The translations under genes were made by a program, and so were the position numbers. From a virus, in IMG/VR virus record IMGVR_UViG_3300021197_001752, positions 82,706 to 146,705 of that record: a DNA stretch of 64,000 bases. One strand, 5' to 3'. The first letter of the stretch is position 1; each line of letters starts with the position of its first letter. The notes beneath the pieces were generated by a model. It had not been told where the DNA came from and did no database searches. It worked only from the letters and a program-made list of their open reading frames with translations. Of this stretch, positions 31,654-47,619 are shown piece after piece.

Positions 31654-32367
31654 CTAACTGGCAAAATCCCGCTCTTCAAACAGAGTATAGGTAAATGAAT
31701 TACCAAATGCTTTAGCCGAGTTGTTGCAAATCTCAATAAATGTATTATAATCATCCACCTTTTGGAACACCTGGCAGCCAGCCGACCACCTCTCAACTAA
31801 GTAAGATTGTGTCCTAGGGTTGCTCCTATGAATGTTGATTCCGAATAGGCCTTCTTGTGTTTCTTCGCAGCCATAATCCAAGATGTCATCCTTGTTGTTA
31901 TCTCGCCAAACACGAACTGGCTTTCTCTGGCATAGAGCTTCGTATTTACCCTGGTGCTTAGCTAGCTTCCAAGTCGAACGATATTGACCTGGGATGAGAA
32001 TAGCTGTGCCCTTTGGGCTCAATGGGTTTTCTAACCAGTGCTTGCCTGGGTCTGTAGTCGCACTCCAGACATGGTGTCTCCACTCTCCATTCTCTCGGTA
32101 GACGGCACAGATGTAGTCATCGAAACGATTACTCTCTGGGTTGTCTACTCTGACTCCAAAGATATTGACATTATAATCTTTATTGCCGTCAAAAAACATA
32201 TAGCCTTTTTTCTCGTAAGCAGCAACGACCGCATCTTTGTCAGCAATAATTTCTTCTAAGTTCATCACTTCTATCTCCTGCTTATTCTGGGACATCCCAG
32301 AAAGACTGGTCGAGGATTCTGTCGGCAATACCATACTCAATAGCTTGTTTAGCATTAATATAAACAT
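31654..32367 (-). CDS. L,D-transpeptidase-like (YkuD) peptidoglycan enzyme, putative endolysin (likely start MNLEEII)
   Basis: TTDPG, PGQY, GINIH...WSAGCQV catalytic His/Cys. Confidence 0.65.
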   Translation of the reverse strand: MFILMLNKLLSMVLPTESSTSLSGMSQNKQEIEVMNLEEIIADKDAVVAAYEKKGYMFFDGNKDYNVNIFGVRVDNPESNRFDDYICAVYRENGEWRHHVWSATTDPGKHWLENPLSPKGTAILIPGQYRSTWKLAKHQGKYEALCQRKPVRVWRDNNKDDILDYGCEETQEGLFGINIHRSNPRTQSYLVERWSAGCQVFQKVDDYNTFIEICNNSAKAFGNSFTYTLFEERDFAS

Positions 32368-33034
32368 TTGTTTTCCGCTCCATCATCTTCTTGATCATTC
32401 TCTTATTCATGTTGGTGACACTAGCTAAAGCCTCTACGTATTGATCTTGTAACCACTTTGTTTCTTCATACTCAGTTTCAAGCTCGTGCATAGCACCATG
32501 GTGACCTGCTCGTAGAGAATGGATCATCACTCTGGTATTCTTGCCAATGAACCTACAGCCTTCCGCACCTGATGCTAACAGTAGAACACCTGCTGACATA
32601 ACCTTGCCGAGCCCTACTGTTTCGATAGGCGTTGATGATCTCATCGATAACATCAAATCATGGATACCAAACATGTCGGCAGCGTTACCGCCAAAGGTTG
32701 AAATATAAAACTGCATTGGCTTGACTGCCATGTACTGTTTTGTTTTTTCTGTATTTATTAGAACAAGACTATTGTTGTAGTTGTGATAAATCAATGCTGA
32801 GATAATAGCAGATGCTGACTCCTCATCAAGATTACCACAAAAGTTAATTGCTCGTGGAGTACGTTTCTCGGTGGGCACCTCAACCAAGGTTGGCACCACT
32901 TCTCTTATCTCGTCTTCGGTCATGTCTTCAATAGAGACAACCTCTAAAGCAATGTCAAGGTCAGCTTCGGTTTCTGGTACCAGAACCTCGACCTCTTCTT
33001 TGCTACTCTTCCTCTTCGTCTTCTTCGTTGGCAT
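32282..33034 (-). CDS. clpP: ClpP-like protease
   Basis: ISTFGG, VMSAG (Ser), MIH (His), A.EYGIAD. Confidence 0.88.
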   Translation of the reverse strand: MPTKKTKRKSSKEEVEVLVPETEADLDIALEVVSIEDMTEDEIREVVPTLVEVPTEKRTPRAINFCGNLDEESASAIISALIYHNYNNSLVLINTEKTKQYMAVKPMQFYISTFGGNAADMFGIHDLMLSMRSSTPIETVGLGKVMSAGVLLLASGAEGCRFIGKNTRVMIHSLRAGHHGAMHELETEYEETKWLQDQYVEALASVTNMNKRMIKKMMERKTNVYINAKQAIEYGIADRILDQSFWDVPE

Positions 33035-42746: not shown

Positions 42747-42775
42747 ATTATACTATTCTTCTTCGGATTTGTCAA
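42747..42775 (-). promoter_or_regulatory. Consensus sigma70 promoter for dnaE
   Basis: TTGACA-17bp-TATAAT. Confidence 0.85.
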
Positions 42776-43130
42776 GCTCTTCTTTTTTACCGAAGACTTC
42801 TTTGGTGCCATCTTGATATGTGATGATCGTCTGATTGGCTGGATGTGGTTCAATGTGAACCTTCACGAAGTCGCTCATACTATCAAAGATAGCGATACCG
42901 CCACGGGGTGGAGGATAAAGCCAATGGACAACACATTGACCTGTTGCCATCTTCACTCCCTCGATTACCACGCCTTCGCCTGAGACTCCTGTTTCGTCTG
43001 CCTGGCGATATACTGTGAAACTAGTAATCCCTCTAGGTGCCAACTTTGAAGGTGGCTTAGGAATTAAGTCATCTGGCAATTCTTCGTCCGATACTTTATT
43101 TTCTTCATCTGACATTTTCATTTCCTCCAT
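42753..43130 (-). CDS. Conserved phage hypothetical protein
   Basis: R..DETGVSGEGVV.EGV. Confidence 0.7.
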   Translation of the reverse strand: MEEMKMSDEENKVSDEELPDDLIPKPPSKLAPRGITSFTVYRQADETGVSGEGVVIEGVKMATGQCVVHWLYPPPRGGIAIFDSMSDFVKVHIEPHPANQTIITYQDGTKEVFGKKEELDKSEEE

Positions 43131-43134
43131 GGGT

Positions 43135-43371
43135 CTACAACAAAGCAGCAGTAACGATTTTGTTTAATCTGTTCTTGCAAACTGTTCTGACCTCATCTCC
43201 TCGGTAAATTTCTTTCCTGTGTTCGGGCTGATTCCAATACTCATACATATCGTCTTCCACCCAATCTATCCTAAGGCTAGACCATGAGTCATCGCCCTCT
43301 GCAATACTTTTAATTATGCCGAGTCTCAATAAACCGTTATGGTCTTGCCAAACAACGTCGCCGATGTTCAT
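43135..43371 (-). CDS. Small SH3-like protein
   Basis: IGDVV...LGII...IDW. Confidence 0.6.
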   Translation of the reverse strand: MNIGDVVWQDHNGLLRLGIIKSIAEGDDSWSSLRIDWVEDDMYEYWNQPEHRKEIYRGDEVRTVCKNRLNKIVTAALL

Positions 43372-43372
43372 G

Positions 43373-44173
43373 TTATCCGATCAACCTTCCTATGTCCGAA
43401 GTGATTGCTAATGCCATTATTCCTACCACAAATGCTAAACCGACATAGGACAACCAAGTACGAGTTTTGTACTTGACCTTTCGCCCCATGACTGCCTCTG
43501 TTATAGAGAATACCACATGTCCGCCATCTAGTAAAGGGATTGGTAACAAATTAATTAAACCTAAGTTAATACTCAAGAAAGCTATCCACTGATATATAAA
43601 GCCATTGTCTTTAGTTTGGGTTGATCTTGCCTGTGCCTGCTCTGTGATCTCATAGATAGCTACGGGTCCGCCAACGTCTTTTACTGACACCCCTCTTTCC
43701 TTGATCACATCTATTGCCTTGTATATAGTATAATACATCTTGTGTGTTGTGTCAACACTTGCTTTCCAAGCGTATGGCGCACTAACCGTGCCCACGTTTG
43801 AACCATCTGGTGCCTTCACATCTGGCCAAGGCATTCCCCAAAGGTACAAAAAGAATATAGCATAAGGTAGGGCGAGGTTAGTGACGGGTCCTGCTAAAGC
43901 AGTTATCATTCTTTTAAGTGGGTGTACCGCCCAAAAGGATCTAGGATTCCTTGTTGCATTATTATAATCCTCTTCTCCCTCGAACTTAACATAGCCGCCA
44001 AGAGGCAATATACCAAGAGACCACTTGTTGCCAAATGCATTGAATGAAAAAATTTTCGGTCCAAAGCCCACTGAGAACTCTTTGATGCCGATGCCGCATA
44101 ATCGACCGACAACATAATGCCCCAACTCATGAATGAAAACTAATGATAATATTATTACTAATAAGAGAAGCAT
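43373..44173 (-). CDS. RseP-like M50 site-2 intramembrane protease lacking PDZ
   Basis: HELGH, FSVGFGP, PLGGYV, AGP..N, GPV, NLLPIPLLDGGH. Confidence 0.92.
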   Translation of the reverse strand: MLLLLVIILSLVFIHELGHYVVGRLCGIGIKEFSVGFGPKIFSFNAFGNKWSLGILPLGGYVKFEGEEDYNNATRNPRSFWAVHPLKRMITALAGPVTNLALPYAIFFLYLWGMPWPDVKAPDGSNVGTVSAPYAWKASVDTTHKMYYTIYKAIDVIKERGVSVKDVGGPVAIYEITEQAQARSTQTKDNGFIYQWIAFLSINLGLINLLPIPLLDGGHVVFSITEAVMGRKVKYKTRTWLSYVGLAFVVGIMALAITSDIGRLIG

Positions 44174-44640
44174 TGAAAGTCACCATACCTTTGTATTTTA
44201 TTTTTGTCATCTTTTCGCACAGGTATTTCGGGTAGCCCGTAACCTGGTATTATCCATCTTTCTTTTGGCTTACATTCAATTGGCTGCCAAAACTTCAGAT
44301 GATTATGAATTTTCTTATTCTCTTCTTTTAGTTTATTTATATCATTGCTCTGCTGAGTGATTACTCTCTCCAGATTAAGCACTGCGTGGCTTGCAGCTTT
44401 ATGCAAATTCTCTTCTAAATTTATCTGATTATAAAGATAAAGCAAGAATCCCATAAAAACAGCACAAACTATTATGGCTACTACTGATGTCCACATAGCC
44501 GCAGAAAGATAGTTTGGCTTTGATACTGGCTCTGGTGTGACGTCATAAAACTGTGGCTCTTGATCTTGAACAGAAGCATAAGCGTTCTCTTTCATCCTTC
44601 TGTAAGCTTCCCGTTCTCTATCGTTCATGGGCGGCATCAC
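44158..44640 (-). CDS. Single-pass membrane protein with C-terminal coiled coil
   Basis: ~45-aa soluble N-terminus, one TM, heptad region. Confidence 0.65.
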   Translation of the reverse strand: MMPPMNDREREAYRRMKENAYASVQDQEPQFYDVTPEPVSKPNYLSAAMWTSVVAIIVCAVFMGFLLYLYNQINLEENLHKAASHAVLNLERVITQQSNDINKLKEENKKIHNHLKFWQPIECKPKERWIIPGYGLPEIPVRKDDKNKIQRYGDFQCFSY

Positions 44641-45515
44641 GGTCTCGGGGGCTCAATGGTTTTTATTTCTGTAGAGTCCAAGCTCATGTTCTTTCTTGCC
44701 CACAGGTCCATTTCCGAAGAGACTACTGTATCAATCACAAATGTACGTATTGAATTCAGGTTCGATCCTAGACCTACACTCTCCATAGCTGGGAAGCCTG
44801 CAAAGATCATTGACACCAATTCACCCTTTGCATTAAGGATAGGTGACCCACTAGACCCTGGCTTTGTGGGTAATGTGAAAAACATATAACTTTTGTATCC
44901 TACGCCAGCATAATAGCCATCGAACATAAGCAGCATCCCTGGTCCAAATATGCCCCTTGGTGCTGCTGGGTTGTATACCTTCTCGCCCATTCTTGGCATC
45001 TTCTTAGAGATTGGTATTACCCTAGGGCGATGGCGAGCCTTGTAACCAGTAACCTTCAGCACGCATACATCAGCGGTCATATCATATGCAACAATCTCTG
45101 CCCCCTTTAGAACACCCCGATAAGATAGTGTAACGTATGTACTAGCCACTGTAGTCAAGGAGAAGCCATCAATTTTCTTATCTTTTATTTTCTTCTGACA
45201 AGAGTGACCCGCTGTCAAAGCATACGCTATCGTAGGGTCTACATCACTATGACCTATGATAGCCCCTGAGGAAGTATATCTAACAGCACCGACTGTGCAT
45301 TTCTCACCTTTTTTGCCATCCTTGTCTGTTATCGTCTGACATGCTTGAATGGCATGGGTAGCCTCTACACGCACGAATGAAGCAAATGGCATTCTCTCGT
45401 TAGGCTGGGCAGTTTCTGTAAGGGATTGCTTGGTAGAATAGCATCCACCCATGCAACCCATTTGAAATAACACCAGCAGAGTGGCTAATCTTAGTATTGG
45501 TATTTTTACTCTCAT
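44637..45515 (-). CDS. Trypsin-like (S1) serine protease, exported/lipoprotein
   Basis: LTAGH, DVCVL, PGSSGSP triad; signal segment with Cys. Confidence 0.88.
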   Translation of the reverse strand: MRVKIPILRLATLLVLFQMGCMGGCYSTKQSLTETAQPNERMPFASFVRVEATHAIQACQTITDKDGKKGEKCTVGAVRYTSSGAIIGHSDVDPTIAYALTAGHSCQKKIKDKKIDGFSLTTVASTYVTLSYRGVLKGAEIVAYDMTADVCVLKVTGYKARHRPRVIPISKKMPRMGEKVYNPAAPRGIFGPGMLLMFDGYYAGVGYKSYMFFTLPTKPGSSGSPILNAKGELVSMIFAGFPAMESVGLGSNLNSIRTFVIDTVVSSEMDLWARKNMSLDSTEIKTIEPPRP

Positions 45516-45604
45516 GTAGTAAATATGAGGCATTTTGGTGTTTTGTTGACTAGTTACGAATGTTTATGACACTTCTGTGTTCAAAGGTGGGATTCTAACA
45601 AGTT

Positions 45605-45901
45605 ATGAAATTACTATCAATCATATCAATAATATCGTTTTTACTACTGGCTCCTTCGGCTTCTCTCGGGAATAACGTCAGTGTCGCTAACCAGAAGAGG
45701 GCTTCTTTGGTTATTGAACAGGCTTGGAAAGAGGCTACTGAGGGTCGTTGGAAATATACCAAAGACGATGTAAATATTACCAAGCAAGTTCTAGTTACTC
45801 TTGTAAAGGGTGTGAAGTTTATGGATATAGAAACTCACAAACCCCTACATAAGGAGATAACTAAACTTCCTTTCGTAACCTATGCTGGGGAAGCAAAGTA
45901 A
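45605..45901 (+). CDS. Secreted hypothetical protein
   Basis: Signal peptide. Confidence 0.65.
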   Translation: MKLLSIISIISFLLLAPSASLGNNVSVANQKRASLVIEQAWKEATEGRWKYTKDDVNITKQVLVTLVKGVKFMDIETHKPLHKEITKLPFVTYAGEAK

Positions 45902-45910
45902 CATGCAAGG

Positions 45911-46378
45911 ATGTCTAAAAGAACAAAAGTATTAGCTCTAACACTTTTTCTAATCTCTTTTGGGACTCTATTATCTTTTCTTATTTTTGCCGAACCTACT
46001 CCGCAAATTATAATTCCTAAACAAACAACATATTATTTAGAAGGTCAGCAACGTAATTGTTTGTGGGTTATCCAGACCCTAGACACCTTAGATACTGGTG
46101 ATAACGTCATGACCCGTATTGCCATTGGGATACCATCAGCTACTAAAGTCGGGGTCATCAAAGGCGTAATACAAGCCTCAAAAGGAAACCAATTACTTTT
46201 AGCATTCGCAATGCCAGGAATGGAGGCAAACCCTCCTATTATATTAAGTGCGGACATTCCCGATACCCTACCAGCAAAACAATTATCTTTTAGCTGGCTT
46301 GGTAGTGAGATGTTCAAAATGAAACTTTTTTATGACCAGAAGGCTTGCTTAGAGAGCGTAGCCGAATGGATAAAGTAA
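45911..46378 (+). CDS. Membrane-anchored hypothetical protein
   Basis: N-terminal TM. Confidence 0.65.
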   Translation: MSKRTKVLALTLFLISFGTLLSFLIFAEPTPQIIIPKQTTYYLEGQQRNCLWVIQTLDTLDTGDNVMTRIAIGIPSATKVGVIKGVIQASKGNQLLLAFAMPGMEANPPIILSADIPDTLPAKQLSFSWLGSEMFKMKLFYDQKACLESVAEWIK

Positions 46379-47619
46379 CTAAACTATTACTGATAGTTCT
46401 ACTAAGCTCCTGCCAGGCGTGCATTGAGGACGAGGAACTAGTACCACTTGAGTGTCGCCCTGGTGAACAAGTATTGTGTAACCATGAAGGGATAGATTAT
46501 CCTCAAGCTGACACAGACCCCGTACCCGATCGAGCAGGTCAGTGCTCCTACGGCTTGAGGACATGCGATTTTCGTGGCTGGTCTGAATGCGTTGGAGCTA
46601 TGGGACCCTCAGAAGAAGTTTGTGATGGGATAGACAATGATTGTGATTCCGTAATAGATGAGACTTATCCCGAGGAGAGTCAGTTATGCGGCTTTGTAGA
46701 GGGTGCAAACTATGGGGTAGGCATATGCAACATTGGGGTCATGACTTGCGATAATGGAACTGTTTATTGTAGTGGGCACGTTGGTCCTTCTGATGAAATC
46801 TGTGATGGTTTAGATAATAATTGCAACGGGACAACAGATGAGGGAATAGCAAATTCTACAGCCATCGTATGTTACGAAGGCCCAGAAGGTACAATGGCAG
46901 TAGGCGAGTGCCGTGCTGGTGTTCGATATTGTACGGATGGAAGCTTCAATGTTCCCTGTGATGGACAGATACTACCTAGTATTGAAATTTGTGATAACAG
47001 GGATAACGATTGCGATGGGGTAGTCGATGAGGGGTTCGATACTCGTGGTGTAGATTTGGTTTTTGTTATCGACGTATCTGGCTCATTTGACCAAGAGATA
47101 GAGTCAATGATACAGGGTATCGCTCCCCTTTTAGACGACCCAATAACGAGCACATTTCGATTTGGACTGGTTGCTGTAGGTACCGCAGGCAATGGCGAGA
47201 TAAGACCTGCTCATCAGTATGCAAGGATGGTTTCTGATTTTGTCGCTGCTGATGAATTCCTGGAGATCTTAGAAGCCGCCAGGATGATACAGAGTTCTGG
47301 GGTGGAGCCAACCATTGACACAATGTTCTGGTCGATGACTCTCTACCCTTTCAACTGGAGGGCTGAAGCACAAAAGGTAATTATAACGATGACTGATGAG
47401 GTAGCTCAATCTGTCTTAGGAAAAGACTGTGCAGAGATCTCTGCGATTGCCCAAGACGATCTTTTTGAGCTTTTTGTTTTTGCCCTACGACCACACCAAA
47501 ACACATTCCTAGCTTGTGTTCACGGAGAGCACCGAAGGCTATTCACTCCCGCTGTCAACTCTGAGACAGTGTTCTTGCAGATAAGGCAAATATTTGACGA
47601 TCTATGTATGGGCGATTAG
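46366..47619 (+). CDS. Lipoprotein with MopE-type Cys/Asp repeats and vWA domain
   Basis: Three E.CD..DN.C(D/N)...DE repeats; DLVFVIDVSGS MIDAS; TDE. Confidence 0.85.
   Translation: MDKVTKLLLIVLLSSCQACIEDEELVPLECRPGEQVLCNHEGIDYPQADTDPVPDRAGQCSYGLRTCDFRGWSECVGAMGPSEEVCDGIDNDCDSVIDETYPEESQLCGFVEGANYGVGICNIGVMTCDNGTVYCSGHVGPSDEICDGLDNNCNGTTDEGIANSTAIVCYEGPEGTMAVGECRAGVRYCTDGSFNVPCDGQILPSIEICDNRDNDCDGVVDEGFDTRGVDLVFVIDVSGSFDQEIESMIQGIAPLLDDPITSTFRFGLVAVGTAGNGEIRPAHQYARMVSDFVAADEFLEILEAARMIQSSGVEPTIDTMFWSMTLYPFNWRAEAQKVIITMTDEVAQSVLGKDCAEISAIAQDDLFELFVFALRPHQNTFLACVHGEHRRLFTPAVNSETVFLQIRQIFDDLCMGD

Follow-up and report, generated by a model that had tools for sequence, protein, structure and literature searches.

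Signalling through site-2 proteases is universal among cells; can a phage carry such a device of its own? The question is raised by three genes in a 64,000-nucleotide stretch of DNA (the window), which covers bases 82706-146705 of the 146.7-kb IMG/VR virus record IMGVR_UViG_3300021197_001752, a record estimated to be 81% complete. They encode a trypsin-like protease (S1), a middle protein with one transmembrane (TM) helix (mid) and an RseP-type metalloprotease (M50). An earlier note, made from the sequence alone, likened this triad to the E. coli relay in which DegS, RseP and ClpXP sequentially destroy the bitopic anti-sigma factor RseA, and proposed that the phage encodes a self-contained cascade or ungated proteases that act on the host. 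Its account of the genes was confirmed: all three are intact, co-oriented and overlapping on the minus strand (43373-45533), S1 has its catalytic triad, mid is bitopic, M50 has both RseP motifs and neither protease has a PDZ domain. The triad itself is two separate modules, S1 with a set of exported proteins and mid with M50, which are joined only in the window's clade.

Gene order across related phages

Relatives of the locus were found in environmental metagenomes, Tara Oceans samples among them, and the related phages constitute an uncultured marine family with genomes of 150-235 kb. An alignment-based scan of IMG/VR centred on S1 returned 44 loci (33-86% identity), a single-sequence S1 query having returned none, and the M50-centred comparison used 40 PDZ-less loci of at least 37% identity. 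Cultured-phage databases gave no match to the locus by blastn and, with M50 as the tblastn query, partial matches only, most of which fall in records that are fragments or carry no annotation; those few with annotation are full-length rseP/yaeL genes that resemble bacterial sequence under phage names. No relative above 31% identity was found by tblastn with DnaE, and searches of the literature turned up no account of a site-2 protease encoded by a phage.

Mid lies directly behind S1 in just 12 of the 44 S1 loci. M50 then follows in 11 of them, the twelfth contig ending within mid. Every one of the 12 comes from the window's clade, and because the whole block from ribonucleotide reductase (RNR) to DnaE is syntenic throughout, the S1-mid adjacency carries little independent weight. 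At 27 further S1 loci the position after S1 is taken by another gene of ~157 aa, or no gene is recognised there, and both mid and M50 are absent within 5 kb. The other five have M50 across the module, convergent with a gene for a MopE-VWA lipoprotein and preceded by a DnaJ-like gene, with no mid. Hence mid is missing within 5 kb of S1 at 32 of 44 loci. What stays with S1 is a divergent set of exported-protein genes: MopE-VWA and p155-like genes lie upstream of it at all 44 loci, and p98 at most.

Viewed from M50, the order is different. The 40 loci comprise 11 with the S1-mid-M50 triad, 17 in which mid and M50 stand in two further contexts with no S1 within 5 kb, five with DnaJ-M50 convergent with MopE-VWA and seven with M50 near DnaE and no adjoining mid. 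Mid therefore adjoins M50, mostly overlapping it, at 28 of 40 loci, in three contexts and down to 45% M50 identity. The distances within single genomes can be large. The 190.5-kb genome G005, which is 100% complete, has the mid/M50 overlap at 185.9-187.2 kb and S1 near 111.5 kb, 74 kb away; in G001, S1 and the divergent exported-protein genes are 69 kb from mid-M50. The 74-kb gap in a complete genome, together with the 12 of 44 S1 loci that have mid behind S1, argues that the triad is not a fixed unit, and the conserved synteny that the earlier reading called for is thus not borne out.

The junctions within the window are tight. The TGA stop codon of S1 overlaps the candidate mid starts (GTGATG), of which the ATG at 44628 is probably the true one, being the best fit to relatives, and mid and M50 overlap by 16 nucleotides. 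Relative to the closest relative, the ratio of nonsynonymous to synonymous substitution rates (dN/dS) is 0.04-0.08 for S1, mid and M50, with dS close to saturation in two of these genes; in comparisons with remoter relatives the synonymous sites had reached saturation. The low ratios indicate that all three are real genes under purifying selection.

Some neighbours of M50 and mid in relatives merit description in their own right. In one clade (L060:1099-2933 and L047:1025-2868), a DnaJ-like gene with a J domain and CxxCxGxG zinc fingers replaces mid before M50; added to GroEL, GroES and the ClpP-fold protease, it gives this phage family an unusually rich proteostasis set. Neither DnaJ nor a 141-aa exported protein, both found next to M50 in relatives, was found in the 81%-complete record. 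In a distant clade (L011 and L012), the genes that flank mid-M50 begin with shared leaders of the MKITKSELQQIIKEE and MKKLLTEWRKFLKE types and continue into unrelated bodies; examples are the open reading frames (ORFs) at L011:3002, 3781, 4697, 6938, 7845, 8098 and 8484.

The mid-M50 pair

M50 carries HELGH at residues 15-19 and NLLPIPLLDGG at 208-218, which correspond to the two motifs of site-2 proteases, the zinc-binding HExxH of TM1 and the NxxPxxxLDG of TM3 that supplies the third zinc ligand. His15, Glu16, His19 and Asp216 are unchanged in 17 sequences with 38-82% identity to the window's M50. The profile match to Kangiella RseP (7W6Y) comes in two pieces, residues 4-125 aligning with 11-139 and residues 124-264 with 308-443; since the alignment skips the 7W6Y chain from 139 to 308, it is the PDZ tandem of ~170 residues that is missing. 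Pfam likewise detects no PDZ domain in M50, and none occupies the loop between TM2 and TM3 where group I enzymes carry it. M50 is accordingly 266 aa long, compared with 355-458 aa for cellular relatives, and all of the cellular relatives listed in a large protein search have one or two PDZ domains. The phage forms sit in a separate clade of PDZ-less proteins of 266-269 aa, encoded on contigs as long as 172 kb.

The AlphaFold2 (AF2) model of M50 (pLDDT 89.6, pTM 0.85) contains the group I core: four TM helices, a membrane-reentrant beta-hairpin (strands 30-46 and 49-64) and, preceding the final TM helices, the post-PDZ helices (132-160 and 170-187). In Foldseek comparisons it has TM-scores of 0.79-0.80, normalised to the phage protein, with B. 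subtilis RasP (9A6W), Aquifex RseP (9J82) and E. coli RseP (7W6X). By sequence and fold, M50 is an RseP/RasP-type core, a viral PDZ-less variant with predicted site-2 protease function.

Mid belongs to a new virus-only family. A profile search of 1.84 billion representatives recovered just 24 proteins, all environmental or viral, and 185,579 species genomes gave zero matches. Its AlphaFold model has a helix at 7-26, a TM helix at 44-72, a long helix at 75-118 and a disordered tail at 120-160, so that the cytoplasmic head is a single predicted helix of ~20 residues. Lysine and arginine residues number 39 on the N-terminal side of the TM helix and 28 on the C-terminal side in 18 members, and the C-terminal flank is acidic, a modest fit to the type-II (N-in, C-out) topology, which is the orientation of RseP substrates. 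Assignment to a known family was tried and rejected, because the candidates from Pfam, PHROGs and the ESM Atlas are weak and inconsistent (ASFV_J13L, CcmD_alt, phrog_739 and an FtsL cluster, the last with a score of 0.79, under the tool's reliability level). An FtsL/DivIC/FtsB identity also failed: of the families tested (PF04977/PF04999), DivIC matched 3 of 18 members, at E 0.046 at best.

Conservation in mid is concentrated at two places. Asn43, Ala47, Trp50 and Thr51 are invariant at the cytoplasmic entry of the TM helix, forming the motif N-[YW]-x-x-A-x-x-W-T, and Trp118 and Pro120 are invariant in a W-x-P motif just past the long helix; head and tail are variable. Indeed, 5 of 18 aligned members are headless, with merely 6-18 residues ahead of the TM helix. 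One of these (P0162, 34% identical) nevertheless overlaps a PDZ-less M50. The loss of the head with retention of the M50 overlap disfavours a released, RseA-like head as the core function of mid, contrary to the analogy first drawn, and the head matches no anti-sigma-related Pfam family at E values up to 1. The conservation pattern fits a TM and juxtamembrane helix that would touch the protease, either as substrate or as gate.

Two variants of mid stand apart. P0159 (312 aa) joins the coiled-coil/tail half of mid to an unrelated N-terminal region of 218 aa with a leader-like start (MTKIIKLVKEQIK) and no obvious TM helix; it may be a real soluble variant or a chimera of assembly or gene calling. 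Upstream of the stand-alone headless mid of G007, at L067:1214-1483, the ORFs in translation resemble what reading through tRNA genes would give.

S1, its exported neighbours and other genes of the window

Trypsin_2, which spans residues 90-240, is the sole domain detected in the 298 aa of S1. Pfam found no PDZ domain, nor is there one among the 108 database relatives listed, all of them environmental; among the matches listed, the family is confined to environmental and viral contigs. The chymotrypsin-type triad (His110, Asp155 and Ser228) is unchanged across 24 distinct relatives. So is Cys27, at which the signal peptide terminates, and in most relatives this cysteine lies within a canonical lipobox, L[ST]SC. 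The invariant cysteine and the lipobox indicate that S1 is by its sequence a lipoprotein, a more exact description than the exported protease first noted. Four further cysteines (Cys65, Cys79, Cys112 and Cys157) are invariant in the same relatives. The best sequence matches in the PDB, to Deg1, SplA and HtrA, are remote (E ~1e-3). A database version of the window's S1 (P0180) has 274 aa and is 24 residues shorter at one end, being 100% identical to 92% of the query; should the gap be N-terminal, its start is Met25 and the signal peptide is lost. The 298-aa form is supported by the conservation of the hydrophobic N terminus and of Cys27 among relatives.

The exported proteins encoded beside S1 comprise p98, with a signal peptide, p155, whose N terminus is an anchor or a signal, and a lipoprotein in which three MopE-type Cys repeats are combined with a VWA domain. 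They look like a candidate phage envelope-remodelling or exclusion unit, which is also seen at L019:1-1473.

Positions of the features discussed, numbered within the window
Feature	Position	Strand	Basis
M50, PDZ-less RseP-type site-2 metalloprotease, 266 aa	43373-44173	-	PF02163, E 1e-56, 192 bits (cut-off 27.2)
Mid, virus-only bitopic protein, 160 aa	44158-44640	-	AF2 model; no family assigned by Pfam
S1, trypsin-like PDZ-less lipoprotein protease, 298 aa	44637-45533	-	Pfam Trypsin_2, E 1.9e-11
Exported-protein module: p98, p155, MopE-repeat + VWA lipoprotein	45605-47619	+	Pfam MopE, VWA; constant S1 partner
Sigma-70-like promoter candidate upstream of S1, TTGATA-17-TAGAAT with TG	45592-45620	-	Consensus scan; weak
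Two small genes (78 aa, 125 aa) after M50, same direction, ahead of dnaE promoter	42753-43371	-	ORFs
ClpP-fold protease	32282-33034	-	CLP_protease, E 2.5e-27
Sigma-70 region-4 helix-turn-helix protein, Cys-rich, 88 aa	34146-34412	-	PF04545, 23.8 bits, E 5.4e-6, marginal
237-aa protein downstream of ClpP-fold gene	31654-32367	-	phrog_3000, E 2e-41

The triad stands among replication and folding genes: the window encodes DnaE, class II RNR, DnaB, RecA, a gp32-like single-stranded DNA-binding protein, GroEL, GroES and a ClpP-fold protease. The ClpP and the stand-alone sigma-4 protein on which the relay would draw are both present. However, the best PHROG matches of the ClpP-fold gene are head-maturation proteases, which its product looks like, and the sigma-4 match, 9 kb from the triad, is marginal. 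A ClpX-type unfoldase (AAA_2) gave nothing above the cut-off in the record. The 237-aa protein encoded directly downstream of the ClpP-fold gene, and overlapping it, also matches an 'endolysin' PHROG, over the C-terminal part of the latter (E 7e-17).

A perfect consensus promoter lies upstream of dnaE. Promoter-like sites in the region show no excess over the shuffled expectation, so the candidate upstream of S1 is weak. Both small genes behind M50 are syntenic in the window's clade, and the 125-aa protein matches phrog_7499. A small SH3-like gene was considered as a constant neighbour of M50 and rejected, the 78-aa, 81-aa and 74-aa proteins concerned having no significant mutual similarity.

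Models of the locus and known systems

We put at about an even chance the reading that the locus consists of two phage envelope modules that are conserved independently of each other and happen to be joined in a single operon in the window's clade, with mid and M50 as a dedicated pair. Module A would be the S1 lipoprotein with the divergent p98, p155 and MopE-repeat/VWA lipoprotein. Module B would be an RseP-derived core (TM1-TM4, reentrant beta-hairpin and post-PDZ helices) that has lost its PDZ filter and is translationally coupled to a type-II mid; both of its proteins would insert into the host inner membrane in the early or middle replication phase. The PDZ tandem of RseP is a size-exclusion filter, and M50 without it would accept membrane helices that still bear a full ectodomain. 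Mid would dock on M50 through its TM-entry motif and juxtamembrane helix, and would act there as a gate or adaptor in place of PDZ control, in the way of SpoIVFA and BofA for SpoIVFB, or else be M50's own substrate. We slightly favour the gate/adaptor role, on account of the overlapping and presumably stoichiometric expression, the conservation of the TM and juxtamembrane segments and the dispensable head; a dedicated substrate is nearly as likely. There are precedents: E. coli RseP with an impaired PDZ cleaves full-length RseA without DegS (PMC7728848), and in B. subtilis two membrane proteins, BofA and SpoIVFA, keep the PDZ-less SpoIVFB inactive until SpoIVB and CtpB, which are secreted serine proteases, lift the block (PMC9042235). 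S1 would work mainly with module A in the periplasm, probably on or with the exported MopE/VWA set, and may or may not trim mid.

Several observations weigh against so clean a division. Mid does not adjoin M50 at 12 of the 40 M50 loci, and G007 has 21 kb between M50 and its mid, a headless one. M50 is found beside the S1 module in two ways, behind S1 (11 loci) and convergent with MopE-VWA (five), which hints that the modules may be functionally linked. Most of the larger related records that were searched contain S1, mid and M50, each of them, so that co-occurrence of the three genes cannot separate the models. Finally, three contigs (L119-L121) from an unrelated phage lineage of low GC content (29-36%) have, within 3 kb of sequence, genes for a ClpP-like protein, an S1 with a TM anchor and an M50 devoid of PDZ domains. 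This S1 is a trypsin-like protease with a coiled coil, a peptide deformylase is clustered with it, and the M50 proteins of the lineage have 214-232 aa. In L120 a 116-aa single-pass protein is encoded between S1 and M50, and the ClpP-like, S1, bitopic and M50 genes overlap or abut (L120:3279-5615; compare L121:2271-5639). L115-L118 retain the deformylase and M50 only, and a search for further members yielded the same three contigs. Homology of mid to the TM/coiled-coil N terminus of the low-GC S1, or to the L120 protein, was rejected at hhalign probabilities of ~1% or less.

The low-GC cluster, with the bitopic protein of L120 in its midst, is among the observations that speak for the self-contained viral cascade, in which S1 would trim the external part of mid, M50 would cut its TM helix, and the freed head would act, for example, on the sigma-4 protein or go to ClpP. 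The L120 protein, however, lacks a conserved counterpart in L119 and L121 and shows no homology to mid. The overlapping or abutting, co-oriented arrangement of the three genes in the window's clade, their retention across the family and the two arrangements of M50 next to the S1 module also favour it, as do the predicted type-II topology of mid and the small, invariant Ala47 near the cytoplasmic end of its TM helix. Yet 32 of the S1 loci are without a nearby mid, 27 of them without M50 too, and 74 kb separate S1 from the pair in the complete genome; the head, on whose release the relay depends, is dispensable and resembles no anti-sigma family; and the window's ClpP-fold gene scores as a head-maturation protease, with no ClpX-type partner above threshold. 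Nor should a PDZ-less RseP need site-1 trimming, given that PDZ-impaired E. coli RseP cuts RseA in the absence of DegS (PMC7728848), and a site-1 step is thus not structurally required. We consider the cascade quite unlikely. What survives of it is the recurrent, coupled mid-M50 pair; the link to S1 is clade-specific, and the ClpP and anti-sigma analogies are weak.

The dependence of RseP on DegS being relieved by PDZ impairment bears also on the possibility that M50 is an ungated protease directed against host membrane proteins, with mid merely an adaptor or unrelated, for example an FtsL/FtsB-like agent of division interference. Candidate targets would be RseA/FecR-type anti-sigma factors, toxins that are small membrane proteins, defence proteins anchored in the membrane and remnant signal peptides; RseP itself is reported to break down signal peptides as well as membrane proteins of small size. 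The loss of the PDZ tandem with retention of the full catalytic core, the M50 loci that have no adjoining mid and the position of the locus among replication genes, behind sigma-70-like promoter candidates, are consistent with such a role, and the FtsL look-alike from the language model offers a lead. Against it, the mid/M50 overlap persists over three genomic contexts, which argues for a specific pair, and the DivIC/FtsL matches in Pfam are marginal. We regard this alternative as unlikely.

Mid could also be an Rz-like i-spanin or another lysis component, with lysis regulated by the proteases. It has a TM and a predicted periplasmic helix, with a length similar to that of lambda Rz, many members have a Cys after the helix and near the C terminus, and phrog_739 ('Rz-like spanin') matches at E 2e-4. 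That match, however, is found in just 4 of 18 members, at this E value or weaker, beside equally weak unrelated matches. No small lipobox ORF that could encode an o-spanin is present in any frame at 44000-44700, mid is surrounded by replication genes (neighbours dnaE, RNR and groES) and not by a lysis cassette, and the stand-alone mid of G007 has non-lysis neighbours. We regard a spanin as very improbable.

The most far-reaching version, which we think rather improbable, is a first viral device for regulated intramembrane proteolysis: a PDZ-stripped RseP core re-gated by the virus-invented mid, which the phage's own periplasmic S1 lipoprotein would remove. Were it true, the phage could sense an event at the envelope or set its timing; alternatively, it could unleash, at a moment of its choosing, an ungated site-2 protease on the host's anti-sigma factors, its division proteins or its defences in the membrane. 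Short of this, a whole marine phage family keeps an RseP core that is catalytically intact, as judged from its residues, minus the domain that restricts substrates. If mid gates or feeds M50, the pair would be a natural minimal solution for controlling a site-2 protease without PDZ domains, and would give phages a new means of influencing the inner membrane of the host. The synteny makes mid-M50 and S1 with the MopE/VWA exported proteins units worth treating apart.

How does the locus compare with known systems? The group I site-2 proteases (7W6X, 7W6Y, 9J82 and 9A6W) share with M50 the motifs, the four-TM core, the hairpin and the post-PDZ helices, with profile E values of 2.5e-47 to 5e-42 against their structures; M50 differs by loss of the whole PDZ tandem, by being phage-encoded and by its coupling to a virus-only bitopic gene. 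The spoIVFA and spoIVFB genes stand in that order in one operon, and SpoIVFB is a PDZ-less M50 protease, as is the phage enzyme; SpoIVFB is controlled by membrane proteins and extracytoplasmic serine proteases. Inhibitors of the SpoIVFA/BofA type form a complex with their protease that obstructs its active-site cleft; for mid and M50, the evidence of pairing is the coupling of their genes. Mid has no sequence similarity to SpoIVFA or BofA, however, and the phage M50 is RseP-like instead (Foldseek E 0.065 to 8VJL, compared with 1e-13 to 1e-17 for RseP/RasP) and is without the CBS domain. With the catalytic domains of HtrA/Deg and the staphylococcal Spl proteases, S1 has in common the chymotrypsin fold and GxSGxP around the serine; it differs in its very weak similarity to them (E ~1e-3), its lack of a PDZ domain, its lipobox and its four added invariant cysteines. 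Lambda Rz has an N-terminal TM helix followed by a periplasmic helical region, as is predicted for mid, whereas mid has neither o-spanin partner nor lysis context, and its profile matches are weak and inconsistent.

The E. coli DegS-RseA-RseP-ClpXP cascade has the same kinds of part as the locus: a protease of the S1 clan that acts outside the membrane, a bitopic protein, for which mid has a predicted type-II topology, and a protease of family M50. The two also differ. DegS is a TM-anchored PDZ protease, whereas the phage S1 is a PDZ-less lipoprotein and so is missing the C-terminal PDZ with which DegS/HtrA (S1C) enzymes sense the activating signal. RseA has the anti-sigma domain RseA_N; mid has none, and its head is dispensable in relatives. 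The PDZ filter of RseP makes the site-1 step necessary, and the phage M50 is without that filter. As to ClpXP, the phage has a ClpP-fold gene that resembles a head-maturation protease.

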